A stretch of 64,000 nt of DNA from an uncultured Collinsella sp. (GTDB taxonomy: Bacteria > Actinomycetota > Coriobacteriia > Coriobacteriales > Coriobacteriaceae). The first letter of the stretch is position 1, and each line of letters begins with the position of its first letter. The DNA is taken from positions 11,366 to 75,365 of the forward strand of contig CABUUJ010000001.1 of assembly GCA_902494715.1 (NCBI GenBank). Direction: 5' to 3'. Positions 6,166 to 53,703 of this stretch are shown in pieces. The notes beneath the pieces were generated by a model. The model had not been told where the DNA came from. It saw nothing but the letters and a program-made list of their open reading frames with translations, and searched no databases. A program made the translations under genes and the position numbers.

Positions 6166-6194
6166 ATGTTCGGCTCCATTTCAAACTCGGCTGC

Positions 6195-6413: not shown

Positions 6414-6435
6414 GGGATACCCGTCGACAACTGGA

Positions 6436-9316: not shown

Positions 9317-9342
9317 ACGATATTCGTTGATTTCAAGCCTCT

Positions 9343-9376
9343 GACCTGCGAAAACAGGTCGGGGGCTTCTTATTTT
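9343..9376 (+). terminator. Rho-independent terminator after guaA
   Basis: gacctg-cgaaaa-caggtc followed by gggggcttcttatttt. Confidence 0.6.
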
Positions 9377-10058
9377 GCAACCTCTGTGCGACCTTTGCGG
9401 TTTCGCGCCCCGTGAACAGGGGACGTAGCACTGTTCACGTCTGGGCCCATGTCGGCACCGATCAATGCCCGCGCTGCTTCTGCTTGCGCTTCAGCTTCCG
9501 CTGCTCGAAGCACGTCGCCCGGGATTCCTCGCCAGAGGAGAACTGACCGTTCCTTGCGAAACCGCGAGACCAGCTATATCCGCTTGTTGCGGGCTTGCTT
9601 GAGCTAGCTCCTCTTGAAAGAGCCTATACCTCCGAAGAACTTGTTGTACGTCTCACCGTTCTCCTTGGCCTCGTACTTGACCAAGGCAAGTTCGATAGTG
9701 TAGAGGTAATCCGCCACTTGCTCGAGGCGGTAGTCGGTCATCGAGGTCTTGCGGCGTCGGACGACCCCTTTTGAGAGGACCTTGCCCACCGAGTCGTCTC
9801 GCCCGCGGAACAGAAGGAGCGCATCCTCGCGACCTTCGGCGACCTGTGCTGCGAGATGGAGGGCTGCACCATCGCGCAGGGCCCTTTCCAAAGCGAAGTG
9901 TCGAGCCGAAGTGTTGAGCGTCGGCCCTGAATGTTCAATGGCCGTTGTTTTCTGCCCCTCAAGTGGTGAACTTCTCCTCGGGGCTGTTGATTCCCCCACG
10001 CGCCCCCTTCCGTTCTCTGTGTTCCCCTTATACTCCTTGTACAAGGAGGTAAGAAGTC

Positions 10059-28696: not shown

Positions 28697-28706
28697 GGTA
28701 GCTCCT

Positions 28707-28760
28707 TTGCAAGTTTTGCTAATTTTTGCAAGTTTTGCTAACTTTTGCAAGTTTTGCTAA
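28707..28760. repeat. 3 x 19-bp tandem repeat (TTGCAAGTTTTGCTAA core) immediately upstream of the ATPase start
   Basis: Core copies at 28707-28722, 28726-28741 and 28745-28760 with period 19 bp. Only the 3-nt spacers differ (ttt / ctt / cga). Confidence 0.95.
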
Positions 28761-28870
28761 CGACTGACCAAAGGGCATCGAAGCAGTGACGCTGACATTT
28801 TTTACGCAGAAAAATAAGCAGAAATCAATTTATCTGCGTTAAAAAATAGTTGAGAAGAAAAACGACGAGT

Positions 28871-28898
28871 CCCGGGCGCAATGCCGTTGCGCTCCGGG
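28871..28898 (-). terminator. Terminator downstream of the topoisomerase subunit A gene
   Basis: cccgggcgcaa / ttgcgc(t)ccggg hairpin. On the minus strand it is followed by ctcgtcgtttttcttc. Confidence 0.6.
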
Positions 28899-28941
28899 CC
28901 CCGCTGCTTTGTAAAACCATGACGGTTTGGCAACCGTTGTT

Positions 28942-31182
28942 TTAGTCAAACAAACTCGGCATGTCGTTTTCCTTCATGAGGGCACCGGCAGAAGGCAGGC
29001 TCTGCGCGGTGAACTTCTCGGCCGAGACGCCGGCGCCAAGAATTTCCTCGGTCGTGCCGACGGTGGTGACCGAGCGGCCCTTCTTGGCCGTAAAGGCCTG
29101 TACGCCCTGCGTGTTGGTGGTCGTCTTGGTCTTGAGCAACGACGTGTTGAAATTCATCAGGCGGTAGTCGCTCGAGACCAGCGCGATGTCGCGATCTTCC
29201 TTGAGCACCTGGGCATACAGCAGCTTGCTGCCACCGTAGATGGCGTTCTTGAGGCGCTTGCGGTTGGTTTTGGTGACGTATCCGGCAAGTGCGACACGCA
29301 CCACGCGGCCGTTTTCAAAGACAAACAGCACGTCGGCCTTGTAGTCCTCGGGGTCGATGACCCAGATGACGCTCTCGTCGGGTTCCATCTCAAGATCGGT
29401 CGGCAGGTACGAGCCCAGCTGGGCCGACTTGGTGTCCTCAAACGCCGCAACCTTGCACTTGTACACCTGGCTCTTGTTGGTAAAGACCAGCAGCTCGTGC
29501 GTGTTGGAGGACGGGAACTCGATAAAGGGTTTGTCGCCGTCCTTGTACTTAAGCGTGGTCGCCTTCTTGAGCACACGGTCCGTCATCTTTTTAAGGTAGC
29601 CCTCGCGCGAAAGCATGATAGTAACCGGGTACTCCTCGACCTCGGGCTCCAGGCTTACCTCGATAACCTCGTGGGGCTCGATCCTGCCCGTGCGACGCGG
29701 CATCACGTACTTCTTGTTGACCGCGGCCAGCTCGTCGCTGATGACCTTCTTGATGTTCTCCTCGCTGGAGAGGATCTCCTCAAGCTCGGCAATCTCACCT
29801 TCGAGCTTAGCAATGTCCTTGGTGCGGTTGAGGATGTACTCCTCGTTGATGTTGCGGAGCTTAAGCTCGGCAACAAACTCGGCCTGGGTCTCGTCGATGT
29901 CGAAACCCTTCATAAGGTTGGGCACGACCTCGGCCTCGAGTTTGGTGCCGCGGATGATGGCGATGGCCTTGTCGATGTCGAGCAAGATGGCCTCGAGGCC
30001 GTGCAGCAGGTGCAGGCGCTCGGATTTTTTGCCCAGGTCAAAGTTAATGCGGCGACGCGTGGACTCAATACGCCACTTGACCCACTCGTGCAGAATCTGG
30101 CGCACGCCCATAACACGGGGATAGCCGTCGACGAGCACATTGAAGTTGCACGAGAACGAATCCTGCAGCGTGGTCGAGCGATAGAGCTTCGCCATGAGCT
30201 TATCGGGGTCGACGCCGCGCTTAAGGTCGATAGCGATGCGCAGACCCGAAAGGTCGGTCTCGTCGCGGATGTCGGCGATCTCCTTGACCTTGCCCTCTTT
30301 GGAAAGCTTGACGATGCGCTCGATGATGACATCGGTCTTGGTGGTGTAGGGGATCTCGTACACCTCGATGATGCGCTCTTCGGGAATCCAGCGCCAGCGG
30401 GAGCGGATCTGGAAGCTGCCAAGGCCGGTCTCGACAATCTTTTCCATCTCCTCGCGGCGGTAGATGATCTCGCCGCCGGTCGAGAAGTCGGGCATGGGCA
30501 TGTACTCGAGCAGATCGCAGTCGGGATCCTGCAGGTAGTGCATCGTGGCGGTGCAGACCTCGTTGAGGTTGAAACCGCAGATGTCAGACGCCATGGCGAC
30601 GCCGATGCCCTTGTTGGCCGAGACGAGGATGTTGGGGAACGTGGTGGGCAGCAGGCGAGGTTCCTTCATGGCGCCGTCGTAGCTGTCAACGAAGTCGACT
30701 GGGTCCTTGTCGATGTCCTTGAAGATCTCGGCACTGATGGGGGAGAGCTTGGCCTCGGTATAACGCGAGGCGGCGTAGCTCAGATCGCCCGAATAATACT
30801 TGCCAAAGTTGCCCTTCGACTCCACGAAGGGGGCGAGCAATGCCTCGTTGCCGGTGGCCAGACGCACCATCGTCTCGTAGATCGCGGCGTCGCCGTGCGG
30901 ATTGAGCTTCATGGTCTGGCCCACGATGTTGGCGCTCTTCTGGCGCTCGCCCTTGAGCAGACCCATCTTGTACATGGTGTAGAGCAGCTTGCGGTGCGAG
31001 GGCTTAAAGCCGTCGATCTCGGGGAACGCACGCGAGACGTTGACGCTCATGGCGTAGGGCATGTAGTTGACCTCGAGCGTCTGCGTGATCGGCTGGTCGG
31101 TGACCTCGGAGTGCAGGCCGATGACGTTCTCGGCGTTGACCTGCTTTTTCTTTGGCTGGGTTTTCGTCTTCTTCTTTGCCAC
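28942..31182 (-). CDS. Type IIA DNA topoisomerase subunit A (ParC-like; no GyrA box seen)
   Basis: 746 aa. VNYMPYAMSVNVSRAFPEIDGFKPSHRKLLYTMY...NPHGDAAIYETMVRLA...AASRYTEAKL (active-site Tyr). The C-terminal domain is short and I see no QRRGGKG-type GyrA box. Confidence 0.9.
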   Translation of the reverse strand: MAKKKTKTQPKKKQVNAENVIGLHSEVTDQPITQTLEVNYMPYAMSVNVSRAFPEIDGFKPSHRKLLYTMYKMGLLKGERQKSANIVGQTMKLNPHGDAAIYETMVRLATGNEALLAPFVESKGNFGKYYSGDLSYAASRYTEAKLSPISAEIFKDIDKDPVDFVDSYDGAMKEPRLLPTTFPNILVSANKGIGVAMASDICGFNLNEVCTATMHYLQDPDCDLLEYMPMPDFSTGGEIIYRREEMEKIVETGLGSFQIRSRWRWIPEERIIEVYEIPYTTKTDVIIERIVKLSKEGKVKEIADIRDETDLSGLRIAIDLKRGVDPDKLMAKLYRSTTLQDSFSCNFNVLVDGYPRVMGVRQILHEWVKWRIESTRRRINFDLGKKSERLHLLHGLEAILLDIDKAIAIIRGTKLEAEVVPNLMKGFDIDETQAEFVAELKLRNINEEYILNRTKDIAKLEGEIAELEEILSSEENIKKVISDELAAVNKKYVMPRRTGRIEPHEVIEVSLEPEVEEYPVTIMLSREGYLKKMTDRVLKKATTLKYKDGDKPFIEFPSSNTHELLVFTNKSQVYKCKVAAFEDTKSAQLGSYLPTDLEMEPDESVIWVIDPEDYKADVLFVFENGRVVRVALAGYVTKTNRKRLKNAIYGGSKLLYAQVLKEDRDIALVSSDYRLMNFNTSLLKTKTTTNTQGVQAFTAKKGRSVTTVGTTEEILGAGVSAEKFTAQSLPSAGALMKENDMPSLFD

Positions 31183-31227
31183 GATTTCCTCTTGAACTTC
31201 TTAAGGGCCGTCGTTATCGATTTGCTG

Positions 31228-33225
31228 CTACTGCAGGTCCAACTGGTCCAGGTATTCCTTGCCGTGCTCCGAGATATGGCGCTTGCGGCCCGCCTCGTCG
31301 TTGCCCAGCAACAGGTTGAACATGGTTTCCATCTTGGTGACGTCCTCGGGCTCCACCTTGATCAGGCGGCGCGTCTCGGGGTTCATGGTGGTGAGCCACA
31401 TCATGTCCGGATCGTTCTCACCAAGACCCTTGGAGCGGTTGATGGAGCACTTCTGGTCGCCAATCTCTTTGAGGATGCCGTTCTTCTCGAGCTCGGTGTA
31501 GGCAAAGTAGGTCTTTTCTTTGCAGTTGATCTCGTAGAGCGGCGACTCGGCGATATACACGTAGCCCTCGTCGATAAGCGTGGGCACCAGTCGATAGAGC
31601 ATGGTGAGCACAAGCGTGCGGATGTGGTAACCGTCGACGTCGGCGTCCGTACAGATAATGACCTTGTTCCAGTTGAGGTTGTCCAGGTCGAAGGCGCCCA
31701 GGTTCTTGATGCGCTTGTCCTTGATCTCCACGCCACAGCCCAGCACGCGCATAAGGTCCATGATGATGTCGGACTTAAAGATGCGCGGATAGTCCTCCTT
31801 TAGGCAGTTGAGGATCTTACCGCGGACGGGCATGACACCCTGGAACTCGGCATCGCGCGAGGTGCGAATGGCACCTGCTGCCGAGTCGCCCTCTACGATG
31901 TAGATCTCGCGACGGCTCTTGTCCTTGGAGCGGCAGTCGATGAACTTCTGCACGCGGTTGGCCATGTCGGTCTTCTGCTGCAGGTTGGTCTTGATGCTCT
32001 GGCGTGTCTTCTCGGCGTTCTCGCGCGAGCGCTTGTTGATGAGCACCTGCTCCATGATCTTGTTGGCGGCGTCTTTGTTCTCGATCAGGTAGGTCGAGAG
32101 ACGCTCCTTAAAGAAGGCCGTCATAGCCTGCTGGATAAAGCGGTTGTTGATGGCCTTCTTAGTCTGGTTCTCGTAGGACGTCTGGGTTGAGAAGCAGTTG
32201 GTCACCAGCACCAGACAGTCCTGGACGTCCTGCCATTTGATGCCGCTCTCGTTTTTGTTGTATTTGCCCTGTTGCTTGATGTAAGCATCGATGGCGCTGG
32301 TCAGAGCGCTACGGGCGGCCTTCTCGGGCGAACCGCCGTTCTCGAGCCATGACGAGTTGTGGTAGTACTCCTGCATCATGAAGGTGCGCGAGAAGCACAT
32401 GCACGCGGTAATCTTGACGTTGTAGTCGGGCAGGTCCTCGCGATCGCGACCGCGACGGTCGGCCTCGATAAAGAAGGGCTCGGTGAGGTAGTCGGTACCG
32501 ACCTTCTCGAGCACGTAGTCTTCGATGCCCTTGGGATAGCAAAAGTCCTCTTCGGTAAATTCGCCGTCGTCGCCCTCGATGCGCAGGCGGAAGGTCACGT
32601 TGGCGTTGACCACGGCCTGGCGGCGCATGGTCTCGCGATACCAGTCGTGGGGGATGCTGATGGAGGTAAAGACCTCAAGATCGGGGCGCCACTTGATGGT
32701 GGTGCCGGTGCGGTTCTCGTCGCTGGGCTCAATCTCGAGTGCCTTCTTTTTGGCACCGACGACCTTGCCCTTCTTAAAGTGCAGGGAGTACTTGTTACCA
32801 TCGCGCCAAACCGTGACGTCCATGTACTCGGAGGCGTACTGGGTCGCGCACGAGCCCAAGCCATTGGTACCGAGCGAGAAGTCGTAGTCGCCGCCCTGGT
32901 TATTGTTGTATTTGCCGCCGGCGTAGAGCTCACAAAAGACGAGCTCCCAGTTAAAGCGCTTCTCGGAGGGGTTCCAGTCGAGCGGGCAGCCGCGGCCGTT
33001 GTCCTCTACCTGAATGGAGCCATCGCGAAAGGCGGTAAGGGTGATGAGCTTGCCGTAGCCCTGGCGCGCCTCGTCAACGGCGTTGGACAGGATCTCGAAG
33101 GCAGCGTGTGCACAGCCATCGAGTCCGTCCGAGCCAAAGATAACGGCAGGGCGCAGGCGTACGCGTTCCTCGTCCTTGAGCTGGCGGATACTGTCGTTAC
33201 CATAGTTTGCGGTGTTTTTTGCCAT
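31228..33225 (-). CDS. Type IIA DNA topoisomerase subunit B (ParE/GyrB family)
   Basis: 665 aa. It has a GHKL ATPase N-terminus (FEILSNAVDEA..., GGKYNNNQGG...GTNGLG) and a Toprim domain (EIYIVEGDSAAG, ICTDADVDGYHI). Confidence 0.9.
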   Translation of the reverse strand: MAKNTANYGNDSIRQLKDEERVRLRPAVIFGSDGLDGCAHAAFEILSNAVDEARQGYGKLITLTAFRDGSIQVEDNGRGCPLDWNPSEKRFNWELVFCELYAGGKYNNNQGGDYDFSLGTNGLGSCATQYASEYMDVTVWRDGNKYSLHFKKGKVVGAKKKALEIEPSDENRTGTTIKWRPDLEVFTSISIPHDWYRETMRRQAVVNANVTFRLRIEGDDGEFTEEDFCYPKGIEDYVLEKVGTDYLTEPFFIEADRRGRDREDLPDYNVKITACMCFSRTFMMQEYYHNSSWLENGGSPEKAARSALTSAIDAYIKQQGKYNKNESGIKWQDVQDCLVLVTNCFSTQTSYENQTKKAINNRFIQQAMTAFFKERLSTYLIENKDAANKIMEQVLINKRSRENAEKTRQSIKTNLQQKTDMANRVQKFIDCRSKDKSRREIYIVEGDSAAGAIRTSRDAEFQGVMPVRGKILNCLKEDYPRIFKSDIIMDLMRVLGCGVEIKDKRIKNLGAFDLDNLNWNKVIICTDADVDGYHIRTLVLTMLYRLVPTLIDEGYVYIAESPLYEINCKEKTYFAYTELEKNGILKEIGDQKCSINRSKGLGENDPDMMWLTTMNPETRRLIKVEPEDVTKMETMFNLLLGNDEAGRKRHISEHGKEYLDQLDLQ

Positions 33226-34459: not shown

Positions 34460-37400
34460 CTAGCGAGGCTTATCCGAATTGGCCTCCTTGGCGGTGTCTT
34501 TTTCGAGCGCCGTGCGGCGGGCACTGTAGGTGACGAGGCCGGCGCCTGCCGCGGCGAGTGCAGCTGCGGCTGCCGTAAGGGGAGCATTGACATCGCCCGT
34601 GCCAGCGAGCGCGCCCGCTTTTCCGGAGCGCTTGATATTGCCGTGGTCCTTGCCACTGCCGGAGCTGCTTCCGCCGGAGCCGCCGCCCTCGTCAGCACCG
34701 CCGCCACTTGAGCCACCATCGCCGTCTGCTGTCATCGGGGCGTCGTGAAGTCCTGTCGTATCCGCGCTGTCGCATACGCCGACCTGAACTTCTGAGCGTT
34801 CGCATGCCGCGTCGGGCACATGAAGCTCGTGCAGTATGGCACCCAGCGCCGAGTTTGCGCCCGGTCGAATTTCCTCGAGCGTTACGGGATCGAGCGCCAC
34901 CAGATTACGCGCCTTCGCATATAACGTTACGCGTTTGCCCACTTCGTCGCTCCAACTCTCGGGAATGGCGAAGCTCATGCGGAATTGTGCCGTGCAACCC
35001 GGTGCCAGCACGGCGTTGCCGTTGTCGGCTACCAGCGGGTGCGTTGCAAAACGTGCGCCCAGCGTCTCGAGCGCGTACTTCACGTGTGCCATATCGTTGG
35101 CCGAAGCGTTCTCGGCAAGCTCCGGATCGTAGATCGAAGCCATACGTGCGTTTGTTCCGAATCCGATGGATGCGCTGGAGAACGGCTGGCTGGAGCCCTC
35201 TCGGTACAGATCGATCGTGCCGGCGGTCAGCAAGGTGTTGCCGTCGTTTCGCACCGTGACCATGAAGGATTCGCCTGCTGCTCCGGGCACCACCGCGCCC
35301 GAGGTGGCGACCGCGCCCGTCGGAGTGGCACACGCCACCAAGGGCACTTCGATGCCGTGTAGTTCTGCCTCGCTCTTCTCCGCGCTCACAATGTGCGTGG
35401 CGAGCGCGGAGAGCATGCCCCCCGACGTCAAAAATGTCGTTATCTGATCGACGGGATGGTCCAGCTCGCACATCACGAACGGCTCCGTAAACAGATCACC
35501 TGCCAAGGTGCTGGCGAAGATGCGGAAGTGCTTGCCCATCACTGCTACTGGGTTGCCTTCTTCGTCGTAGGTTTGCCCCACCTTGCCATCGGTGTTCTCT
35601 ACATAGAGCACGCACCTGCCGTTGTTGCTTACGCTAAACGATGCCGGGCCACAGCCCGCGGCGCCCACGGGCTGCGTTGCAAATGCCGATGCGCCTCGTG
35701 CCCAAGTAATATGCTGCAGCTGCTCGTTGACGGTAGCCAAAAAGCCCGTGTGTTGCGGCCACGGCACCGCGTGGGGTACTGCCGCATCTGGCGACATAAC
35801 GCCCCAGCCCGCAATGGACTGGCCGATCACGGCGTACGATGCGCAGCCGCAACCGTCTGCGGTCTCGTACGCAACGGGCACCACCATTTTGCCGTTGATA
35901 TTCTCGGGCTCGCCCAGCTCGATACTCGACGGTGCTTGCGGAAAGCGGAGAACTTGGCGGAACGTCAGGCTGTCGCCCGAAACGTCCGACCATAGGGTAA
36001 AGCACTCCAGCGCAACCTCAGCCTCGCTGCCGAGCGCCTTTTCTGCGGTGGTTCCGCGGCGGTGGAGGTAGGCACCCGACAGGCGCCCGTCGACCAGCGT
36101 CTTGCCCACCGTGATACGCGGGCACTGCAGGCAATGGTAGCCATCCTCTTGCAGGCGGCCGCGCGAGATGCTGCGCCACGACGTGTGCGACATCACGCGA
36201 ACTCCGCCGTTGCTTATGCGCAGGCGCACAACGGACAGTATGCCGGATGTGCTCGCCGCATCGAAAAGGGTGTTGTCGCCGTCGGGGCGCTCGCCCGAGA
36301 CCAGCAGCACGTAGGCGTCCTGGTTTCTCCTCCCGTCTGTATATTCCACCACGTCGAAGTCGTAATCGAATATGCCGTTGCGCTCCACGTCGCCCTCGCC
36401 AAACCCAAGGGAGAAGTCCACGGGCGTGGGAGCGGACCACGTGCCGTTCGTTTTTGTATGCACCACCAGGCGCGAGCGACCGTTCTCGCCGTAGCGCACC
36501 GAGGCGATACGGAACAAGCACTCCACGCCGGCGATTATCGCCAGCTTCATGTGGGCTTCGCTGAGCACGCCGGAAAACAGCACGTTGTCGCTCGAGGGCT
36601 TGATGCCGCCACGCTCGTCCTCCGATACACCGGCTGAATTGGCGTTGGGGTCCGCAACGGCGTCCTTCGCCTGCCTGATATGGGTGTACTCATACATCGG
36701 CGCGGCGTTTTCGTCGTTCTCTATCAGTGCGTGGACGAAATGCTCGATCTGTCCCGTGTCGTCGCTTTCTGCATCCGCCTCGAGCTCAATGCGCGTGACC
36801 GACCGGTCCCAATCGCGTACGGTAGGCGCGACATTCCTTGCAGTGGCTTTAACCTCGGCGCGCGCGAGCAGCTCGGCGTTGGTGACAATGGTGGCCGATG
36901 CGATAAATTGCGGAACGCCGCCCGCCTCGGCGTTGCCGGCTGAGCCGAAGCAGGCATCTAGTGTATAGGGCGTATCTCCACCCAATGCGAGCTCAGAGCG
37001 CTGGAGTACATACTGGTCGCCGTTGTTCACCGACATATTCCACGAATCGAGGAGTGTGGGCCACGACCCCGACCAAGCCTTGGTGGTCCACTTGAACATC
37101 ACGAACTGGAGTATCACATCGACATCGACGTCTGCACCTACGCGCAGTCGCGGAAGCTGGTGTCCATCAGCCTTCTCGTACCCAATGAACAGCGTGAGGG
37201 ATGCGGCGCCGCGCACGGCAGACGAAGCGACGCCTGCAACGCCGGCGCCAAAGGTGACGGCAAGCCCGATCTGGATGGTGAACGAGCCCGAGGTGTTTGA
37301 ATAGTCGAGCGATATGTTTTTGAAAAACGCCGCGCCGCTACCGTGCGTGTGGGCGCCCACGGCGAGCGCCAGTTTTGCCAGCACCCAGGGGTTGACGTTT

Positions 37401-38827
37401 AGGAAAAACGGCACCGGTCCTAGGGTAAACTGCTCGGTCCAATTGAGGTCGGTTCTTACCTGGAAGAGGGCCTTAATATTGCCGTATGCGGGGTCGTTGT
37501 TGTTACCCCAGGTTTTGCCCACCCAATCGTAGGCGAGCGAGCCGTACAGCTGTGTGGCGATATCCATCGTGAACAGCGGCGTGCAATGGTGACGAAGGAG
37601 CTTGGTGTTTCTTGGATCGGTGCCCGAACCGGCACTCATCCTCTTGTACTGATTCCACTTCCCCTCCATCTCGTCGAGGTAGCGGTTTGCCTGCTTGGCG
37701 CCCGACTCGCGCGGCGATTTCTTCCAGTATTCCGGATCAGGGTTGCCCGAATCGTTCATATAGCTAGCTGGTTTGTACCCTCCGCCAAACAGCACGTATC
37801 CAGCAAACGAGAAATCGAACAGAATGGGAAATGTGGGCATCCAGCACGTGAACTTATTGCCGCCGATACCGGGAAACGCCGCGGGGAAATCAAACGGAGT
37901 GATCTCTTGGTCCATGGTGGTGGGAATGATGGTGGTCGAGCCCGATTCCGCCTTTGCGGCCGGCGCGGTGACAACGGCCATAGGGGATGAGAGCGTGTAG
38001 GTTTTGCCCTGGTAGTCGAGCATAAAGCGCAGCTTGCACCCTTCCTCCAGAAGGCCCGAAGCTGCATCGAGGAACGTGTCTTCAAGCGTGAACGTCGCCA
38101 GATTATCCGCGCCCGATGCGCTGACCTTGATCTGGCCGATCTGTGTGACGGTTTCGGTTGAGCTGCCCGCAGCGGGCATCACTTTATTGATATGCAACGT
38201 TGCCTGCCCGCCCTGCGGCAGATGAGCCTGCACGGTAAAAGCGTGCGTGTCGGGCTGGTCGTTTGCTGCTTCGTCCGCTGGCATTGCCATAAACGTGGCG
38301 TCGGCGTACTGGATGTCCCATTCGTCGAACGTGAGCTGTCGAAAGTACGGCTCGCCATCGGAGAGCGGACGTGTGGGTGCGGTAATAGCGGTGCCGCCCT
38401 GGATACGCGCAAGGGGAATCTCGACATCGCGGTAGCCTGCCATGCTAATGGAGATGCCGCCGTTAAAGTCGTACGCGTCGAGAAGCGTTGCCTCGTCCAC
38501 GTAGCCTTCTGAAAGAGGGGCGACCTCAAAGATGGCCGTGCCTTCGTCATCGGTCGTGGCGGTGAGCTGCTTGCCTGCGGCATAGCGCGATATGAGCGTG
38601 ACCTGGGCACCCGTGATGGGCGTATTCTTGTTGGCGACGTCGACCACGACCACACCAAACATGGTGCGCGAGAGCACCAAGACCTTGAAGGGATCATCTT
38701 CGTCGGCGTATGCCTCGGCGGGGGCGAACGGCAATATGAAGGCGTTTGCGCTTCCCGGCACGCGCGGCAACATAATGCTCGCCAGCGAGGACGCTCCGGC
38801 AACAAGTAACGAACGGCGATCAAGCAT
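34460..38827 (-). CDS. Very large secreted cell-wall-anchored protein (Tat-type signal, LAGTG sorting signal), function unknown
   Basis: Track ORF 34460..38959. ATG 38827 follows GGGAG and gives MLDRRSLLVAGASSLASIMLP...SANA (twin-Arg signal). The C-terminus has a Gly/Ser linker, LAGTG, a hydrophobic stretch and RR (sortase-E-type LAxTG signal). About 1455 aa, with no other domain I recognise apart from a possible Ig/CarboxypepD_reg-like segment near the N-terminus. Confidence 0.8.
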   Translation of the reverse strand: MLDRRSLLVAGASSLASIMLPRVPGSANAFILPFAPAEAYADEDDPFKVLVLSRTMFGVVVVDVANKNTPITGAQVTLISRYAAGKQLTATTDDEGTAIFEVAPLSEGYVDEATLLDAYDFNGGISISMAGYRDVEIPLARIQGGTAITAPTRPLSDGEPYFRQLTFDEWDIQYADATFMAMPADEAANDQPDTHAFTVQAHLPQGGQATLHINKVMPAAGSSTETVTQIGQIKVSASGADNLATFTLEDTFLDAASGLLEEGCKLRFMLDYQGKTYTLSSPMAVVTAPAAKAESGSTTIIPTTMDQEITPFDFPAAFPGIGGNKFTCWMPTFPILFDFSFAGYVLFGGGYKPASYMNDSGNPDPEYWKKSPRESGAKQANRYLDEMEGKWNQYKRMSAGSGTDPRNTKLLRHHCTPLFTMDIATQLYGSLAYDWVGKTWGNNNDPAYGNIKALFQVRTDLNWTEQFTLGPVPFFLNVNPWVLAKLALAVGAHTHGSGAAFFKNISLDYSNTSGSFTIQIGLAVTFGAGVAGVASSAVRGAASLTLFIGYEKADGHQLPRLRVGADVDVDVILQFVMFKWTTKAWSGSWPTLLDSWNMSVNNGDQYVLQRSELALGGDTPYTLDACFGSAGNAEAGGVPQFIASATIVTNAELLARAEVKATARNVAPTVRDWDRSVTRIELEADAESDDTGQIEHFVHALIENDENAAPMYEYTHIRQAKDAVADPNANSAGVSEDERGGIKPSSDNVLFSGVLSEAHMKLAIIAGVECLFRIASVRYGENGRSRLVVHTKTNGTWSAPTPVDFSLGFGEGDVERNGIFDYDFDVVEYTDGRRNQDAYVLLVSGERPDGDNTLFDAASTSGILSVVRLRISNGGVRVMSHTSWRSISRGRLQEDGYHCLQCPRITVGKTLVDGRLSGAYLHRRGTTAEKALGSEAEVALECFTLWSDVSGDSLTFRQVLRFPQAPSSIELGEPENINGKMVVPVAYETADGCGCASYAVIGQSIAGWGVMSPDAAVPHAVPWPQHTGFLATVNEQLQHITWARGASAFATQPVGAAGCGPASFSVSNNGRCVLYVENTDGKVGQTYDEEGNPVAVMGKHFRIFASTLAGDLFTEPFVMCELDHPVDQITTFLTSGGMLSALATHIVSAEKSEAELHGIEVPLVACATPTGAVATSGAVVPGAAGESFMVTVRNDGNTLLTAGTIDLYREGSSQPFSSASIGFGTNARMASIYDPELAENASANDMAHVKYALETLGARFATHPLVADNGNAVLAPGCTAQFRMSFAIPESWSDEVGKRVTLYAKARNLVALDPVTLEEIRPGANSALGAILHELHVPDAACERSEVQVGVCDSADTTGLHDAPMTADGDGGSSGGGADEGGGSGGSSSGSGKDHGNIKRSGKAGALAGTGDVNAPLTAAAAALAAAGAGLVTYSARRTALEKDTAKEANSDKPR

Positions 38828-38983
38828 CTTTGGCTCCCATCCCGCAGGTATCGGTGGAAATAATCCAATTTTGCGAGAAGGCATCCTGTCACGGTAGTGC
38901 CGTCCGAGGGCCAAAATGTCCAATTTGAGCGAGCGAAGCGCCGGGGCTCCGGGGCGCACGTGCCGCGCTAGGCAGTCTGGCCG

Positions 38984-47200: not shown

Positions 47201-47520
47201 TGCTGGAGCGCAAAAAGGAGATTGGCATCCTGCGCGCGATCGGCGCGTCAAAGCGCAACGTGGCCAACGTGTTTAACGCCGAGACCTTTATCGAGGGCCT
47301 CATCGCCGGCGTCTTTGCTGTTGTCGTCGTGGTGGCCGTGAGCTTCCCGGTCAATGCTTGGGCGCTTGCGGTCAAACAGGTCCCCAACCTAATGAGTCTG
47401 CCCGTGCAGGATGCGCTGGTGCTCATTGCGATTTCGGTGCTGCTAACGGTCGTCGCCGGTCTACTGCCTGCCCGCAGCGCATCCAAAAAAGACCCCGTGG
47501 AAGCCTTGCGCTCCGAATAA
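44266..47520 (+). CDS. Fused ABC transporter, ATPase plus MacB/FtsX-type permease with a very large extracytoplasmic region
   Basis: ATG 44266 follows AGGAGAGG; the track start 44257 is a TTG. Walker A is GPSGSGKTT, signature [15 protein letters not shown], Walker [11 protein letters not shown]. The C-terminal FtsX reads [13 protein letters not shown]. Confidence 0.9.
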
Positions 47521-47551
47521 TGCGACAAAGGGACAGTCCCTTTGTCGCATT
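47519..47551. repeat. Palindromic repeat unit, copy A (15-bp perfect stem), overlapping the ABC stop codon
   Basis: aatgcgacaaaggga-cag-tccctttgtcgcatt. Related copies at 53704-53736 and 54019-54048. The flank aaatcggggtctaattac resembles 53748-53766. Confidence 0.8.
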
Positions 47552-47695
47552 GAGACCCTTGCGAAATCGGGGTCTAATTACCGTTCGGCAGGTTAAGAAC
47601 TCCCTCTCCCCGCTTAATGCTTGACGAAGAGTCCTCTGGTTTATATACCTATCGGTAGGCATATAGGATGTATTGCCGATAGAAATGGAGCAACC

Positions 47696-48976
47696 ATGAC
47701 TCTCACCACACCAGCCAAAAAAGATTGTCTCCGTGAAAGCGGCGCATTTGCTTGGGTCGTCGTTATTGCGCTCGGCTTAATGTCCGCCGGAACAACTGGC
47801 ACATATAGCATTATTGCCGGCTCATTCGTTGCTCCAGTATGTGAAGATCTGGGCTTTGATTACACTTCTTTTTCTTTCTATTTCACCGCGATTCTTCTTG
47901 GCCTTGCGCTTGGGCTTCCGCTTTTGAGTCGCTTCATTCCAAAAGTAATCGGCAAACCATGGCATATTTGCATTGAACTCGTCCTTATTGCTGCCGGCGC
48001 CGCAATGGCGTTCTACACCGAGGTCTGGATGTTCACCGTCTCCGCCGCAGTGATCGGCATCTGCTTTTCGTTTACAACGGGCGTCTGCATGTCCGATGTC
48101 ATTGACCAATGGTTCAGCAAATCGTCCGGTCTTGCCATCGGCCTCGCTTGGGGCGTTAATTCTCTCTGCACGCTGTTATTGAGTCCTGTCGTTACGCTGG
48201 TCATCGAGCAGCAAGGCTGGCGTACGGGATACATCGTGCTTGCGGCCGTTTCTGCAGCTATGATTTTGCCTGCAAGCGCATTTATCATTCGCCTTAACCC
48301 CTCTGATCGCAACATGCTTCCGTACGGAGAGACCGCCTCCGAAACCCATGAGAGCTGCAGCGCCGATGAGCAGGAAGATGTCCTTTCGGGCATGGCACTC
48401 CGCGATGCCGCGAAAACGCCGTCTTTTATTCTCTGTGCCCTTTTGCTTTGCGTGGCGCAGCTCACCTGCTGCATGAACCAGCTGTTTCCAACCTATGCAA
48501 GCGAGGTCGGTTTCAATCCTATCGTAGGAAGCTTAATGGTCTCGGCAGCTTCACTCTCCGATATCTTACTAAATCCCTTCGTGGGCAAAACATGCGACAA
48601 GCTTGGCGCTATTAAAGCAACGGTCGCATGGACAGGTGTCAGCATTCTTTCATTCCTGCTTCTTATCATTGGCGGAAGCAATGAGACCGTTTCCATCATT
48701 GCAGCTGGTGTAAACGATGTCATGTTCGCCATCGTTGGAACCGCAATGCCGATGCTTCTCCTCTCGCTTTTTGGATCACGCGATTTTGGAAGGATCTATT
48801 CGATTGTTTGCTCAGCGGGCTATGTCGTCGGTGCTTTTGGAATGCCGGTCATGATGAAGGTTTACGGCATGGCAGGGTCATTCCAGGGAGTATTTATCTT
48901 CTGCATTGCCTGCAACCTTATGATTGCTGCGTTTGCTATCGTTTCCGGCTTTCTCAGTAAGGCTGCTGAAAAGTAA
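47696..48976 (+). CDS. MFS transporter (paralogue 1)
   Basis: Track ORF 47621..48976. ATG 47696 gives MTLTTPAKKD... 12-TM pattern. Roughly 60-65% identical by eye to 52354..53619 (shared AWVxVIALGLMSAGTTGxYSxIAGSFVAPVCE...). Confidence 0.85.
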   Translation: MTLTTPAKKDCLRESGAFAWVVVIALGLMSAGTTGTYSIIAGSFVAPVCEDLGFDYTSFSFYFTAILLGLALGLPLLSRFIPKVIGKPWHICIELVLIAAGAAMAFYTEVWMFTVSAAVIGICFSFTTGVCMSDVIDQWFSKSSGLAIGLAWGVNSLCTLLLSPVVTLVIEQQGWRTGYIVLAAVSAAMILPASAFIIRLNPSDRNMLPYGETASETHESCSADEQEDVLSGMALRDAAKTPSFILCALLLCVAQLTCCMNQLFPTYASEVGFNPIVGSLMVSAASLSDILLNPFVGKTCDKLGAIKATVAWTGVSILSFLLLIIGGSNETVSIIAAGVNDVMFAIVGTAMPMLLLSLFGSRDFGRIYSIVCSAGYVVGAFGMPVMMKVYGMAGSFQGVFIFCIACNLMIAAFAIVSGFLSKAAEK

Positions 48977-49010
48977 TAAGCGCCGATTGCATCGGCATAG
49001 ATTGCCACGC

Positions 49011-49060
49011 AACAGGGGTCGACTCCAAGCCAGACTGGAGTCGACCCCTGTTTTCGTTTT
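49011..49060 (+). terminator. Rho-independent terminator after MFS paralogue 1
   Basis: aacaggggtcgactcca / tggagtcgacccctgtt gives a 17-bp stem, followed by ttcgtttt. Confidence 0.85.
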
Positions 49061-49113
49061 AAAGGTTGCCCGCAGGCACCGTGGGTGCCAACATGCGTTT
49101 CAGCTTGGCTGGT

Positions 49114-49692
49114 CTATTTGAACATAAGCTCGACTATTCCCGCCCAAACCGCTTTTTCATCAATATCCTCACCTTGAGCGACCGTATTGCTCGCTCCCTC
49201 CAGAACGGTATAAAGAATTTGTACGTAGAGCATCACGTCGGCGCTATCGGAAAACGCGCCAATCTCTACACCATGAAGAAGGATGTCTTTAAGCGCATCC
49301 ATGGTTCGTTTGGTCGCCGTCGCTTGACGTTCCTGAACTGCAGGAATTCGATTTGATTGAACGCTAACCTCGGCCAGCACGCGCCGGCGCTTTTCATCGC
49401 TTCGATAGCCACCTATAACTGAATTGCCGAGCTCGATAAGCGCGGCCTTGAACCCGTCCCCATCGACTATTAGCGAGTAGTCGCGCTGATAGTCGATGGT
49501 CGGAAACATGCTGTCCAAGAGCGTAGTGAAAATCTCCTCTTTAGAGGGAAAGTAGTAGTACACCGACGGCTTGGATATACCGACAAGGTCGCAAATCTTT
49601 CCGATAGACGCTTTGTCATAACCGACTTCTGCCACAAGATCGTACATTGCGTCCAATATTTTTTTTCTTGTGCTCACGCTGCATTTCTCCAT
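49114..49692 (-). CDS. TetR/AcrR-family transcriptional regulator
   Basis: TRKKILDAMYDLVAEVGYDKASIGKICDLVGISKPSVYYYFPSKEEIF is the TetR HTH. Confidence 0.9.
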   Translation of the reverse strand: MEKCSVSTRKKILDAMYDLVAEVGYDKASIGKICDLVGISKPSVYYYFPSKEEIFTTLLDSMFPTIDYQRDYSLIVDGDGFKAALIELGNSVIGGYRSDEKRRRVLAEVSVQSNRIPAVQERQATATKRTMDALKDILLHGVEIGAFSDSADVMLYVQILYTVLEGASNTVAQGEDIDEKAVWAGIVELMFK

Positions 49693-49916
49693 TGCAAATC
49701 ACTTCCGCACTACCAACATTATTAAGGATGGCAACGGAACATCAATTCGTGTCCAAACATGACCACTATATACGGTGAACGGTATGTATCAGTAGGCGAG
49801 CGGCAAACATTCAAAACTATCTACCGAACGGTAGGTATAGTAGTACTATAGCAGGTGAAACCCCGCTATTGTCGCGGCCGGACAGCATCGCGGGAAACCC
49901 GACGGAAGGACCAACC

Positions 49917-51155
49917 ATGTACGAGAATTATCGTATGCCGGGCGAGTTCGAGAAGCGCTCCAACGTCTATGTGACATGGCTTCCCGATTACATCCGTGCA
50001 GAGGGCTACGATAACCGCCAGCCCTGCGTTGACGTGATTAAGGCTCTGCTCGAGTATGGCGACGTTACGGTCAACCTCAATTGCGGCACCCCCGGCTCCT
50101 ATGAGGAGGCTTGCTCGCGCCTGAAGGAGGAGGGGGTTGATCTCGATCGCATTGAGATTACGCAGTTCGAAGACTCCAACTTCTATGTCCGCGACAACGG
50201 CCCCAGCATCATGGTCGACGATAAAGGCCATTCTTATATGGTCAACCCCGCTTGGACCTATTACGGCGTGTGGGACAAGAACTCCCCGGAGTGCCAGTCC
50301 GCACGTAAGGCAGCCGTTCACATGGCGGTTGCGCTCGGTTGCTTCGATATTGTCAATTCCGAAATGGTTTCGGAGGGCGGCGACCGCGAGTTTGACGGTC
50401 ACGGCACTCTAATCGCCATCGAGGACACGGAATGCCGCAAGCGTAATCCCGAGTTCACGAAAGAGGAAGTAGAGGCCGAGTATAAACGCATCTACAACCT
50501 CAACAAGGTTATCTGGCTTCCGCAGCCTATGCTCGAGGACGACGACTATCGACTGGGCATCCTCGACGAGAAGGAAGACGGAACTCCCATCTTTGGCATG
50601 AGCTTTGCAGCTCACATTGATGAGATGTGTCGCTTTATCACTCCGAACAAGATTCTTCTTGCCGAGGTGTCCGATGAAGAGGCAGCCTCGAGCAAGGCTG
50701 GCGCAGAGTCTCGTCGCCGCATTGAGGCGGCCTACGAGATCCTGAGCAACGAAACGGACTGGGAGGGTAAGCCCTTCGAGATCGTTCGTATGCCCACCGC
50801 CGAGCCGATTGAAGTCGTTATCGCCCCTGGCGATGAGGATTACGAGCTCTATAAGGGCTTCATCGACGAAATGGGCGGCAAGTTTATGGATGGCACTCCC
50901 TGGCCCGAGGGCCCCGTCCACTTCTACGCAGCAGCGAGCTACTGCAACTTCCTCATCTGCAATGGCGTCGTTCTTGGTCAGCGTTATTACCACGAGGGCA
51001 TGAACGAAGTTGTGAAGGAGAAGGACGAGCAGGCCAAAGCCGTTCTTGAGAGCTGCTTCCCCGATCGCAAAGTCATCATGATTGACTCTCTCGCGCTTAA
51101 CCTGTCCGGCGGCGGCGTGCACTGCTGGACCAAGGACGTGGCAGCCAGCTGCTAG
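49917..51155 (+). CDS. Agmatine deiminase / porphyromonas-type peptidyl-arginine deiminase family protein (guanidino-group hydrolase)
   Basis: Track ORF 49869..51155. ATG 49917 gives MYENYRMPGEFEKRSNVYVTW... Family motifs present: FYVRDNGP, SEGGDREFDGHGT, AAHIDEMCRF, and the C-terminal catalytic Cys motif LSGGGVHCWT. At 412 aa it is longer than the canonical AguA as I remember it. Confidence 0.8.
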   Translation: MYENYRMPGEFEKRSNVYVTWLPDYIRAEGYDNRQPCVDVIKALLEYGDVTVNLNCGTPGSYEEACSRLKEEGVDLDRIEITQFEDSNFYVRDNGPSIMVDDKGHSYMVNPAWTYYGVWDKNSPECQSARKAAVHMAVALGCFDIVNSEMVSEGGDREFDGHGTLIAIEDTECRKRNPEFTKEEVEAEYKRIYNLNKVIWLPQPMLEDDDYRLGILDEKEDGTPIFGMSFAAHIDEMCRFITPNKILLAEVSDEEAASSKAGAESRRRIEAAYEILSNETDWEGKPFEIVRMPTAEPIEVVIAPGDEDYELYKGFIDEMGGKFMDGTPWPEGPVHFYAAASYCNFLICNGVVLGQRYYHEGMNEVVKEKDEQAKAVLESCFPDRKVIMIDSLALNLSGGGVHCWTKDVAASC

Positions 51156-51277
51156 CGAGCCTTTGAGCCTGCACTGTCTGATTTAGGCGCCACACTTACT
51201 GCTCCCCGAGGGATATCCGTGTCTCCCTCGGGGACACATTCGACATTCATCTATCACTAAATGGAAAGGAAATAGGC

Positions 51278-52342
51278 ATGAACAACAGCCTCCGCGGTCG
51301 CGACTACATCAACATCCATGATCTCTCCTCCGAGGATTTCCGCTATCTCATCGATCTTGCCTGGAACCTTAAGGCTCAGAAGAAGTCTGGTGTCGACCAG
51401 CGCTACTTCCCCGGCAAAAACGTCCTCGCCAACTTTGAGTGGGGCTCGACCCGTACTCGTTGCGCATTCGAGACCTCCTGCAACGATTTGGGCATGGGCT
51501 TCACTTATCTGACCAACTCCCACATGGGTGACTGCGAGACCGTCAAGGATGCCATGCGCGTCTTTAACGGCATGTATGATCTCATTGTCTACCGCGCACA
51601 GAAGGACGAGCAGTTCCTCTATGACGTCGCCGACCTGGTTGACATCCCGGTCATCAATGCCCTTACTCTCGGCGATCACCCGACTCAGATGCTCGCTGAC
51701 GCTCTTACGATGGAAGAGCAATGGTGCGGTCTGCGTACGAGCCGCGGCAAGAAGATGGCTTTCGTTGGCAACTGCGCCGGCGCCCCGGTGTGGTATGGCC
51801 GCCTGTGCGCTATGCTCGACATGGACTTCCTCGCCATCGGCCCCGACGACCTCCGTCATCAGATGTGCAAGGAAATGATCGAAGAGGTGGAGGCCTGCTA
51901 CGCCAAGTACGCTCCCAATAGGACCTTTACCATCACCTCTGACCTCGATGCCCTGGATGGCGTTGACGTTATCGTTACCGAGGAGTGGCGCTACATCAAC
52001 CCCGAGTGCGGCGAAGAGGTTCTGGATCCCGACGACTACAACTCCTGGCTGGGCGATGCCGAGTCCCTGTACCCCTATCGCGTCACCAGCGAGCTGTGCA
52101 AGCGCACCAACAATCCCGACATCTTCTGCATGCATGAGCTTCCCTCTGTCCACAACGCAGATCACCGTGTTGGCAAGATGCTCCTCGACCAGTGCAAGAA
52201 CGACCTCCATCGCGAGATCATCACCGAGGGTTTCGAGATTGCCGACGAGTGCTTTGAGGCCAACGCTTCGGTCATCTTCCGTGAGGCAGAGAACCGTCAG
52301 CACACCATCAAGGCCGTTATGTGTGCTCTTCTGGGTCTCTAG
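51278..52342 (+). CDS. Aspartate/ornithine carbamoyltransferase-family protein with non-canonical second-substrate motifs
   Basis: The carbamoyl-phosphate motifs WGSTRTRCAFE and HPTQMLAD are present. CMHELP replaces the OTC HCLP motif, and TEEWRYIN sits where DxxxSMG is expected. Confidence 0.8.
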   Translation: MNNSLRGRDYINIHDLSSEDFRYLIDLAWNLKAQKKSGVDQRYFPGKNVLANFEWGSTRTRCAFETSCNDLGMGFTYLTNSHMGDCETVKDAMRVFNGMYDLIVYRAQKDEQFLYDVADLVDIPVINALTLGDHPTQMLADALTMEEQWCGLRTSRGKKMAFVGNCAGAPVWYGRLCAMLDMDFLAIGPDDLRHQMCKEMIEEVEACYAKYAPNRTFTITSDLDALDGVDVIVTEEWRYINPECGEEVLDPDDYNSWLGDAESLYPYRVTSELCKRTNNPDIFCMHELPSVHNADHRVGKMLLDQCKNDLHREIITEGFEIADECFEANASVIFREAENRQHTIKAVMCALLGL

Positions 52343-52353
52343 GAGTTGTATCA

Positions 52354-53619
52354 ATGGAAAATGCAAAGTTAAAGAGCAGCAAGGTCTACGCATGGGTTCT
52401 CGTAATCGCGCTTGGCCTCATGTCTGCTGGTACGACTGGATCCTATAGCGTAATCGCCGGCTCCTTCGTCGCGCCCGTGTGCGAGGAGTTCGGGTTTGAC
52501 TATTCAATCTTCTCGTATTACTTTACCGCGACGCTCATCGGTCTTGCGGCGGCGCTTCCGTTTGTCGGAAAACTCATCCCCAAGGTTGTTGGCAAGGTTT
52601 GGCTCCCCGTCGTCGAGCTTATTCTGCTCGCCGCCGGCGCAGGCATGGCCTTCTACACCGAAGTCTGGATGTTCATCGCCGCTGGCGCCCTGATTGGCGT
52701 TTGCTTCGCCTTCACCACCGGCGTCGCCATGTCCGACGTTATTGACCAGTGGTTCAAAAAATCTGGTGGCCTGGCAATCGGTCTCGCTTGGGCAGTGAAC
52801 TCGATTTACATGCTCATCATGAGCCCCGTCATCACCTCTGTCATCGAGGCCGCTGGCTGGAGGACTGGCTATCTGGTGCTCGCTGGCGTCTCCGCCGTGC
52901 TCATTCTCCCCGCTTCCGTCCTGATTATCCGCTATAAGCCTCAGGACAAGGGCATGCTGCCCTATGGCTACGTCGAGGGCGAGACGGTCACCGAGACCGA
53001 GGAGACGACCGAGGATAGCACGCGTGGCGTTAGCTATGCGCGCGCCATTAAGTCGCCTGCCTTCTTCTTCTGCATCGGCTTCCTCTGTCTCGTTCAGCTC
53101 ACTTGCTGCATGAACCAGCTCTTCCCGACGTATGCTTCCGAGGTTGGTTTTAGCCCCATGGTGGGCGGCTTCATGGTATCCGCTGCATCGCTCTTCGATC
53201 TGTTCCTCAACCCGATCGTCGGCACCACTTGCGATAGGTTCGGCAGCACGAAGGCCATTCTGGGCTGGCTCGCTGTCTCCATCCTCTCCTTTGTCATGCT
53301 CATGATGAGCAGCGGCAACTCGACGCTTAGCATCCTCGCAGCAGGCGTGAACGACGTAATGTACGTCATCGCTGGCACTGCCCTGACCGTTTTGGTTATG
53401 GATGTCTTTGGCTCCCGCGATTTCGGTCGCATCTTCGCGCTGATCTGCTCCGTGGGCTATATCGTCGGCGCCTTTGGCATGCCCGTTATGATGAAGGTCT
53501 ATGAGCTTGTCGGCTCCTTCCAGGGCGTCTTCATCTTCTGCATCGCATGTAACGTTATTATCGGCCTGTTCTTGCTGCTGGCAAAAAAGACTGGTAAGAA
53601 CCTCTCCTGGGACGAATAG
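52354..53619 (+). CDS. MFS transporter (paralogue 2)
   Basis: Track ORF 52321..53619. ATG 52354 follows TAGGAG and gives MENAKLKSSKVYAWVLVIALGLMSAGTTGSYSVIAG... Confidence 0.85.
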   Translation: MENAKLKSSKVYAWVLVIALGLMSAGTTGSYSVIAGSFVAPVCEEFGFDYSIFSYYFTATLIGLAAALPFVGKLIPKVVGKVWLPVVELILLAAGAGMAFYTEVWMFIAAGALIGVCFAFTTGVAMSDVIDQWFKKSGGLAIGLAWAVNSIYMLIMSPVITSVIEAAGWRTGYLVLAGVSAVLILPASVLIIRYKPQDKGMLPYGYVEGETVTETEETTEDSTRGVSYARAIKSPAFFFCIGFLCLVQLTCCMNQLFPTYASEVGFSPMVGGFMVSAASLFDLFLNPIVGTTCDRFGSTKAILGWLAVSILSFVMLMMSSGNSTLSILAAGVNDVMYVIAGTALTVLVMDVFGSRDFGRIFALICSVGYIVGAFGMPVMMKVYELVGSFQGVFIFCIACNVIIGLFLLLAKKTGKNLSWDE

Positions 53620-53703
53620 TTCGATTCGTCTTAGACATACGCTGTAGGGCTTAACCTGCAGCCGCTTTGGGGCATCGACTAACATCGGTGCCCTTTTTCA
53701 TCG

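Follow-up and report, generated by a model that had tools for sequence, protein, structure and literature searches.

We describe here a locus at 47.6–53.7 kb of a 64,000-nucleotide stretch of DNA from an uncultured Collinsella sp. (contig CABUUJ010000001.1; the whole stretch is referred to as the window) that, judging from its sequence, probably encodes a TetR-repressed pathway in which a deiminase, a transcarbamylase and, where present, a carbamate kinase act in turn on a guanidino substrate that is not arginine and is probably not agmatine. The locus carries genes for a deiminase, a carbamoyltransferase, two MFS transporters and a TetR regulator, which is the gene set that the original prediction had assigned to it. 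The two enzymes are a PF04371 agmatine-deiminase-like pentein deiminase of 412 aa (49917–51155, plus strand) and a carbamoyltransferase of 354 aa with the fold of ornithine carbamoyltransferase (OTC; 51278–52342, plus strand). As read from alignments, the catalytic and carbamoyl-phosphate-binding residues are intact and the determinants of specificity for ornithine or putrescine are lost. Deimination followed by phosphorolysis of a non-canonical guanidino compound, as originally proposed, is thus still the best reading of the locus, whereas two parts of that proposal, the lack of a carbamate kinase as a trait of the pathway and an argument from the charge of the active site, did not hold up.

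The deiminase scored 180.6 bits with PF04371 against a cut-off of 25 and has the length and the catalytic GGGVHC motif originally reported for it, the protein terminating in ...GGGVHCWTKD. The catalytic residues C403, H233, D235 and D93 were invariant among 22 family members. The AF2 model (pLDDT 91) adopted the AguA-type pentein fold, and its best Foldseek matches were AguA-type structures (TMq 0.72–0.75, 21–27% identity). Membership in PF04371, nearest structures that are all agmatine deiminases and a public annotation as "agmatine deiminase family" would fit a divergent agmatine pathway, in which agmatine is converted via N-carbamoylputrescine to putrescine and carbamoyl phosphate by enzymes that arose independently of AguA, putrescine carbamoyltransferase (PTC) and AguD, with MFS, NhaC-type or YfcC-type carriers replacing the APC antiporter. 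We consider this alternative unlikely. The protein missed the AguA equivalog cut-offs by wide margins (TIGR03380, 150.5 versus 381.8 bits; NF010070, 151.5 versus 483 bits) and is about 45 aa longer than AguA. In Medicago truncatula agmatine iminohydrolase (MtAIH), Asp89 contacts the terminal ammonium group of agmatine via a water molecule and Asp220 contacts it directly (PMC6447857). When the family was aligned onto MtAIH, the Asp89 position was occupied by N, S, L or M in all family deiminases and was never acidic. At the Asp220 position the window deiminase has Asp, and indeed reads DDD where MtAIH has Asp218–220, a point in favor of agmatine, but family-wide this position varies among D, E, Q, N and L. 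In addition, two conserved insertions, one of 19 aa between the Asp220 position and the catalytic His and one of about 14 aa in the gate-keeping loop that contains DGTPWPxG, are predicted to reshape the lid loops above the distal part of the substrate, the very part by which agmatine is recognized.

The carbamoyltransferase is a member of the transcarbamylase superfamily by its two domains (PF02729, 120.8 bits; PF00185, 71 bits), its STRTR, HPTQ and HELP motifs and its unknotted OTC-type fold. The AF2 model (pLDDT 92) gave TM scores of 0.85–0.91 to OTC structures, and sequence identity was 31–34% to OTCs and 25–26% to PTC. Its scores fell below every NCBIfam cut-off for OTC, PTC, ATC, AOTC and YgeW. 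The values were 192.7 versus 280.85 bits for the OTC model TIGR00658, 237 versus 515 bits for PRK04284, the best-scoring OTC subfamily, 157.8 versus 500 bits for the PTC model TIGR04384, 50 bits versus 453–500 for YgeW and 47 versus 288 bits for AOTC.

Motifs were read from a HMMER alignment to solved OTCs. STRTR and HPTQ, by which carbamoyl phosphate is bound, were retained as had been predicted. Ornithine is bound in OTC by a Lys two residues before STRT, by DxxxSMG and by the Cys of HCLP (PMC4581275); the Lys pairs with the ornithine carboxylate and is replaced by Gln in PTC (PMC4581275, PMC3282769). In the window transferase these places are taken by Trp (FEWGSTRTR versus FEKxSTRTR in OTCs), by TEEWRY with an insert and by Glu; over the whole loop, TEEWRYINPECGEEVLDPDDYNSW, with a 12-residue insertion, stands in for TDVWVSMGE of OTC. 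The substitutions HELP for HCLP and TEEWRY for DxxxSMG that had been noted originally are therefore both real, although HELP proved to be a trait of one subclade only. About 70 canonical OTCs from other genomes uniformly had K, D.W.(S/G)MG and HCLP, and every family member had instead W or M at the position of OTC K53, TE.W and H(E/M)LP, indicating that the differences are systematic and not noise. The GDxxNN motif of OTC (N167 region) is replaced in the family by G(N/R) followed by small residues. STRTR, HPTQ, H.LP, ENRQHTIKA and an N-S-H in the 80's loop are invariant, as is an acidic residue at OTC position 231, present as Glu and the one ornithine binder of OTC that is retained. Since every ornithine determinant is lost, arginine is very unlikely to be the starting compound, and a non-canonical arginine deiminase (ADI) pathway acting on L-arginine was rejected on the same ground. 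Loss of the Lys together with the acid at position 231 suggests that the amine product carries a cationic or polar group at its distal end and, at the position used in OTC, lacks an alpha-carboxylate.

The transferase does not fit the other described signatures either. That of PTC comprises STRT, HCLP, the absence of Lys two residues before STRT, a 230-loop of the form (Y/W)(G/W)(V/L/I)X and a C-terminal helix 13 of about 20 residues (PMC3282769). The family has STRT and no Lys two residues before it (Trp in the window protein), yet HCLP is replaced by HELP or HMLP. The 230-loop reads R-Y-I-N in the window transferase and G-F-F-T in Clostridia members, and helix 13 is missing, as the protein ends level with the C-termini of OTCs, its residue 353 (of 354) pairing with residue 334 of 7xjt, a chain of 336 aa. 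For the divergent agmatine pathway the lack of the carboxylate-pairing Lys, as in PTC (PMC3282769), and an acid in the place of D231/D227, to which a distal ammonium group could bind, are favorable features, and the absence of the 230-loop signature, of HCLP and of helix 13, together with the wide margin by which the PTC model was missed, is unfavorable. The signature of the diaminopropionate and diaminobutyrate carbamoyltransferases (DPTCase/DBTCase) was likewise not found, the family having HELP or HMLP as well as TE.W, after which the next residue varies.

A family profile built from 17 members was searched against 1.84 billion representative sequences. It retrieved three full-length family representatives with 535–622 bits, and the next full-length matches, at about 300 bits, were genuine OTCs that pass TIGR00658. 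By this score gap the transferase family is, at the level of sequence, small and discrete. The two enzymes were placed relative to their known relatives by hidden Markov model cut-offs and signatures and, for the transferase with respect to PTC, DPTCase and AOTCase, also by the profile score gap; the outcome supports the earlier view that they are not genuine members of AguA, PTC or OTC.

It had also been argued that an acidic residue in the pocket for the second substrate, the Glu of HELP, implies a differently charged amine product. This argument is weak. Glu was found in only about 22 of about 150 family members, a subclade made up of Collinsella, Gordonibacter An230, Lactobacillus sp. YT155 and a related contig, and about 125 of the 150 have HMLP. 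Moreover, Arg directly follows TExW in 21 of 22 HELP members and in none of the roughly 125 HMLP members; in the window transferase the covarying residues are E287 (HELP) and R238 (TEEWR). Given this near-perfect covariation, the Glu is better regarded as half of a residue pair than as a free substrate-binding acid, and the pattern suggests an E287–R238 ion pair that bridges the HxLP loop and the 240's loop. The family alignment and motif census, in which most members are HMLP, ruled out HELP as the key determinant of specificity.

The two enzymes form a conserved module. In all ten distinct contexts examined that hold both genes, the deiminase and transferase genes are adjacent or have only a transporter gene between them. 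The contexts are those of Collinsella (window and L006–9), Gordonibacter An230, Eggerthella sp. YY7918, Lactobacillus sp. YT155, a second lactobacillus-like contig, two other Coriobacteriia and three of Clostridia type, so that the module occurs in Collinsella, Eggerthellaceae, Lactobacillaceae and Clostridia. Close homologs were also found in Adlercreutzia equolifaciens, Raoultibacter timonensis, Rubneribacter, Enterocloster asparagiformis and Angelakisella, and in public metagenomes the 90%-identity clusters of close homologs comprise 1,259 and 4,637 member sequences. Pairwise identities of the deiminases and of the transferases correlate across loci (r = 0.85, 55 pairs): the deiminase and the transferase are a co-evolving pair. 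The Collinsella enzymes are 69% and 63% identical to those of Lactobacillus sp. YT155 and 58% and 50% identical to those of Eggerthellaceae, and this closer relationship to the Lactobacillus proteins suggests transfer of the module across phyla.

A TetR gene flanks the module in ten of ten contexts, in one of them together with a PucR regulator, and the module is almost always accompanied by TetR and an exchanger-type carrier of the MFS, NhaC or YfcC/DcuC type. Gordonibacter An230 and L093 share the order TetR(−)/deiminase–transferase–MFS, which Lactobacillus sp. YT155 extends by arcC (TetR(−)/deiminase–transferase–MFS–arcC). L094 has deiminase–transferase–MFS–TetR, Eggerthella sp. YY7918 has TetR–flavodoxin–transferase–MFS–deiminase–TetR, and the Coriobacteriia contigs L089/90 have TetR(−)/MFS–deiminase–transferase–MFS–HSL-type esterase–arcC. 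The Clostridia-type L003 reads TetR–transferase–NhaC-type–deiminase–arcC–Gate-domain protein and the Clostridia-type L088 PucR–YfcC/DcuC-type–transferase–deiminase–arcC. L095 has TetR–transferase–deiminase–NhaC-type with arcC at a distance of 4.5 kb, and L086 has (arcC C-terminus)–TetR–transferase–deiminase–NhaC-type.

These arrangements bear on the claim that the pathway lacks a carbamate kinase. In one respect the claim is correct: tblastn with four kinase queries found none in the 64-kb window, although in other loci these queries picked up kinases with 42–77% identity, and Pfam scans of 20 other open reading frames (ORFs) of the window gave only unrelated genes (PTS, GH4, asparaginase, GMP synthase, gyrB and others). 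Of the set of deiminase, transcarbamylase, kinase and carrier the window thus holds three, with the kinase not in its 64 kb. As a trait of the pathway the claim failed, because arcC lies inside the operon in the relatives L089, L091, L003 and L088 and within or beside the cluster in six of the ten distinct contexts; the absence is hence local to the window. The in-operon kinases of L089, L003 and L091 scored 355–406 bits on TIGR00746, above the carbamate-kinase subfamily cut-off. Some Collinsella species (L050, L058, L063, L068) carry a canonical OTC–arcC pair separately.

The lack of a nearby kinase in four of ten contexts, the window included, and the combination of TetR with MFS, a layout typical of efflux and detoxification loci, could also be accounted for by detoxification or nitrogen scavenging, in which the deiminase would neutralize a toxic guanidino compound or xenobiotic under TetR-controlled MFS efflux and the transferase would recycle the ureido product. 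Bacillus mycoides (L092, CP036132.1, 8001–9242) and B. toyonensis point in this direction. They have a 49%-identical family deiminase without transferase, accompanied by a divergent MerR regulator and, about 0.5 kb downstream, an AmiS/UreI-type channel, and this lone deiminase of soil Bacillus may serve in stand-alone detoxification or in nitrogen use of the same substrate. For the module itself we regard detoxification as improbable, since its tight co-evolution with a carbamoyl-phosphate-forming transferase and the repeated operonic linkage to arcC are hard to explain without harvest of energy or carbamoyl phosphate, and the Clostridia carriers belong to exchanger families and not to drug-efflux families.

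With regard to transport, the two MFS proteins originally noted are present in the window and orthologous MFS genes lie 3' of the enzyme genes in L010, L091, L093, L094, L089 and L001, but MFS transport is not universal, as Clostridia members have NhaC-type or YfcC/DcuC-type carriers. In ADI pathways, carriers of both of the latter types are known that exchange arginine for ornithine (PMC5300872), and the clostridial carriers suggest, by analogy, a basic amino acid. A more specific form of the favored pathway would accordingly be a variant ADI pathway for an arginine-related basic amino acid such as L-homoarginine, L-canavanine, D-arginine or an N-alpha-substituted arginine, which would release lysine, canaline, D-ornithine or N-acyl-ornithine. 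Its case is built on the YfcC-like "putative basic amino acid antiporter" (170 bits) and NhaC-type carriers of Clostridia members, both carrier types being Arg/Orn exchangers elsewhere (PMC5300872), on the invariant Glu that takes the place of D231, the OTC residue that binds the alpha-amino group, on one relative that adjoins a GntR–DDAH-like–amino-acid-permease unit and on an HSL-type acetyl-esterase-like hydrolase within the operon of one lineage. On the other hand, all members have Trp or Met in place of the OTC Lys that neutralizes the alpha-carboxylate, the domain for the second substrate shows no new Arg or Lys that is conserved, and each of the candidate compounds lacks direct support. 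We treat this variant as possible but doubtful, slightly ahead of agmatine.

Some neighboring genes were considered as clues to the substrate. In one Coriobacteriia lineage a hormone-sensitive-lipase (HSL)-type esterase (Abhydrolase_3; L089, 7080–8024; L090, 6857–7801) with weak matches to acetyl esterase and chloramphenicol hydrolase lies between MFS2 and arcC, which may hint that the natural substrate comes as an ester or acyl conjugate. L086 (metagenome contig ERZ27260868 k119_831, 1–10465) holds a second module subtype with HMLP, a 340-aa transferase and an NhaC-type carrier; 3' of the module stands the unit of GntR, a DDAH/ADI-like protein (258 aa) and an amino-acid permease, and the contig starts, directly 5' of the module, with a carbamate-kinase C-terminus that is 96% identical to a Collinsella kinase. 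The contig may thus stem from a Collinsella-like organism that carries a different module subtype beside arcC. The HSL-type esterase, the flavodoxin and the DDAH-like protein were rejected as substrate clues because their occurrence is too sporadic, and no conserved downstream catabolic enzyme was found across the module contexts examined.

In the pathway that we favor, the MFS carrier would take up the guanidino compound, probably by antiport with the amine product. The pentein deiminase (Cys403/His233/Asp235/Asp93) would then hydrolyze the guanidino group to a ureido group with release of NH3, and the OTC-fold transferase would phosphorolyze the ureido compound in the catabolic direction to carbamoyl phosphate and a free amine. 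The amine would be exported as in the ADI and agmatine deiminase (AgDI) pathways, since no further catabolic enzyme is conserved. Carbamate kinase would convert carbamoyl phosphate into ATP, NH3 and CO2. In the window Collinsella the kinase gene would be either outside the window or absent, and in the latter case carbamoyl phosphate would feed pyrimidine or arginine synthesis.

Several points weigh against this pathway. As no kinase gene was found in the window, ATP yield in this Collinsella is conjectural. The evidence from the carriers, which are of the basic-amino-acid type, and that from the transferase, which has no carboxylate-neutralizing Lys, diverge somewhat. The agmatine deiminases of Helicobacter pylori and Campylobacter jejuni are very divergent from AguA and nevertheless use agmatine, so divergence alone is no proof of a new substrate. 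The OTC Lys is also lost in PTC, and the substrate may therefore be carboxylate-free and agmatine-like. Even so, agmatine itself is a possible but disfavored substrate. Eggerthellaceae carry canonical agmatine-induced AgDI operons, and in E. lenta a second "agmatine deiminase operon", which may or may not belong to the module family, is not induced by agmatine and may act on "a related compound" (PMC10234575). No E. lenta proteins were among the top homologs of the module enzymes.

The module was compared with established systems. With the agmatine deiminase pathway (AguA, PtcA/AguB, AguC and the APC antiporter AguD of Enterococcus faecalis and Streptococcus mutans) it shares the three-step logic, the two enzyme superfamilies, an in-operon carbamate kinase in many relatives, a dedicated carrier and the lack of the OTC Lys before STRT. 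It differs in a deiminase with only 21–27% identity to AguA, two lid insertions and no Asp89-type acid, in a transferase that is 25–26% identical to PTC and lacks the DVW(Y/W)(G/W)(V/L/I) loop, HCLP and helix 13, in carriers of MFS, NhaC or YfcC type instead of APC and in a TetR regulator instead of the LuxR-type AguR. The arginine deiminase pathway (ArcA, ArcB, ArcC, ArcD/ArcE) contributes the transcarbamylase nearest in sequence and fold, OTC, as well as the precedents for NhaC- and YfcC-type carriers and the same energy logic; its deiminase is of PF02274 type whereas that of the module is of PF04371 type, and OTC differs in K53, the N167 region, DxxxSMG and HCLP, all replaced in the module transferase, which misses TIGR00658. 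DPTCase and DBTCase of viomycin, zwittermicin and padanamide biosynthesis also belong to the unknotted OTC branch; their HxLP motif contains an acid (HDLP), and their 240's loop is altered but retains Trp (PMC4581275). In contrast to the module they are anabolic and encoded in antibiotic gene clusters, their loop is (T/S)RWQ(T/S)(T/M)G versus TE.W, and their HDLP acid compares with HMLP in most module-family members. In gut anaerobes, YgeW-type and oxamate-related transcarbamylases of anaerobic purine degradation are likewise catabolic and coupled to carbamate kinase, and for a long time annotations listed them as OTC- or ATC-like proteins whose substrate was not known, but YgeW is a knotted transcarbamylase without a deiminase partner. 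A full-text search of a literature collection gave no characterized family member and no deiminase acting on guanidinoacetate, guanidinobutyrate, homoarginine, creatine or similar compounds. The architecture and the predicted chemistry are those known from ADI and AgDI, the enzyme families, carriers and regulator are new, and the substrate is most probably new as well.

Within the window, the functional unit begins not at 49917, as the original prediction had it, but at about 47.58 kb, with the first MFS gene and its operator-like sites. MFS1 (plus strand; PF07690, 91 bits), whose mechanically called ORF spans 47621–48976, probably starts at the ATG at 47696 (47696–48976); its best NCBIfam matches, to L-lactate, bile-salt and oxalate:formate MFS families, were weak. 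The TetR gene (49114–49692, minus strand; PF00440, 47.5 bits) is divergent from the enzyme operon. The deiminase ATG is preceded by a good Shine–Dalgarno sequence, GGAAGGA, and MFS2 (52354–53619, plus strand; PF07690, 123.6 bits), the last gene of the operon, starts at the ATG at 52354 and not at 52321. MFS1 and MFS2 are about 63% identical, in line with the paralogy that had been stated for them, and the PF00440 match likewise bears out the TetR assignment. A strong hairpin terminator (49011–49052; 17-bp stem, 10 GC pairs, then a T-run) separates the convergent MFS1 and TetR genes, and a terminator-like hairpin (53669–53694, plus strand; 10-bp stem, 6 GC pairs, then a T-run) ends the deiminase–transferase–MFS2 operon. 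From these hairpins we deduce that MFS1 is transcribed on its own and that the deiminase, transferase and MFS2 genes make up a second transcription unit, from which TetR diverges.

About 80 bp 5' of the deiminase start lies a putative TetR operator, CTACCGAACGGTAG (49821–49834), a perfect 6-2-6 palindrome; the exact palindrome is 49822–49833, and the operator sequence is also written TACCGAACGGTA. Two operator-like sites 5' of MFS1, TACCGTTCGGCA (47579–47590) and TACCTATCGGTA (47646–47657), have one mismatch each relative to it, and these near-copies directly 5' of MFS1 would put this gene in the same regulon. Three of the four matches to TACCGNNCGGTA in the window, where 1.27 are expected by chance, lie inside the two promoter regions of the locus. 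Analogous palindromes stand just 5' of the first operon gene in L010, L091, L089, L093, L003, L086 and L095, the sequence being lineage-specific, so that each lineage has its own version immediately 5' of that gene. We infer that the TACCGNNCGGTA sites are TetR operators and that TetR control would be exerted through them.

The window transferase gene is 100% identical to that of an uncultured Collinsella sp. metagenome-assembled genome (CABUTO010000004.1) and 97–99% identical to those of three further Collinsella species-level genomes. GC content at third codon positions is about 0.55 in MFS1 and TetR (47696–49692) versus 0.72–0.76 in the deiminase, transferase and MFS2 genes (49917–53619), to which the flanking genes are similar, and by this contrast the locus looks mosaic. 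Upstream, a perfect 16-nt inverted repeat with a 1-nt spacer (AATGCGACAAAGGGAC/GTCCCTTTGTCGCATT; 47519–47551) lies exactly at the stop codon of the preceding gene, which encodes a 1087-aa ABC ATPase–permease fusion; as no T-run follows, the repeat may be a protein-binding site rather than a terminator. Elsewhere in the window, a 382-aa minus-strand and a 958-aa plus-strand ORF (regions 27602–31803 and 34460–38959) had no Pfam match at E ≤ 1e-5, a minus-strand ORF of 1499 aa is also present, and some such large ORFs may be spurious overlaps in a GC-rich genome.

To our knowledge, only two pathways that proceed from a deiminase via a transcarbamylase to carbamate kinase are established, those for arginine and agmatine, on which gut, oral and food bacteria draw to an important extent for energy and for resistance to acid. 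Whether the module constitutes a third such energy pathway in gut anaerobes (Coriobacteriia, Lactobacillaceae and Clostridia) we judge to be evenly balanced. It would serve a guanidino compound without known deiminase route, with creatine or guanidinoacetate, homoarginine, N-substituted arginine or agmatine and a guanidino drug as candidates, and its transferase would represent a new substrate class. If this is true, a third, cross-phylum module would add a substrate to the short list of transcarbamylase specificities, and the widespread mis-annotation of the module proteins, which are publicly listed as "ornithine carbamoyltransferase", "agmatine deiminase family protein" or "hypothetical protein", would be corrected. 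The proposal is directly testable in cultured carriers, among them Lactobacillus sp. YT155, Raoultibacter timonensis, Adlercreutzia equolifaciens, Eggerthella sp. YY7918 and Gordonibacter sp. An230. A third pathway of this kind would also indicate that gut bacteria gain ATP from the turnover of a guanidino metabolite, which may bear on host creatine, arginine or drug metabolism.

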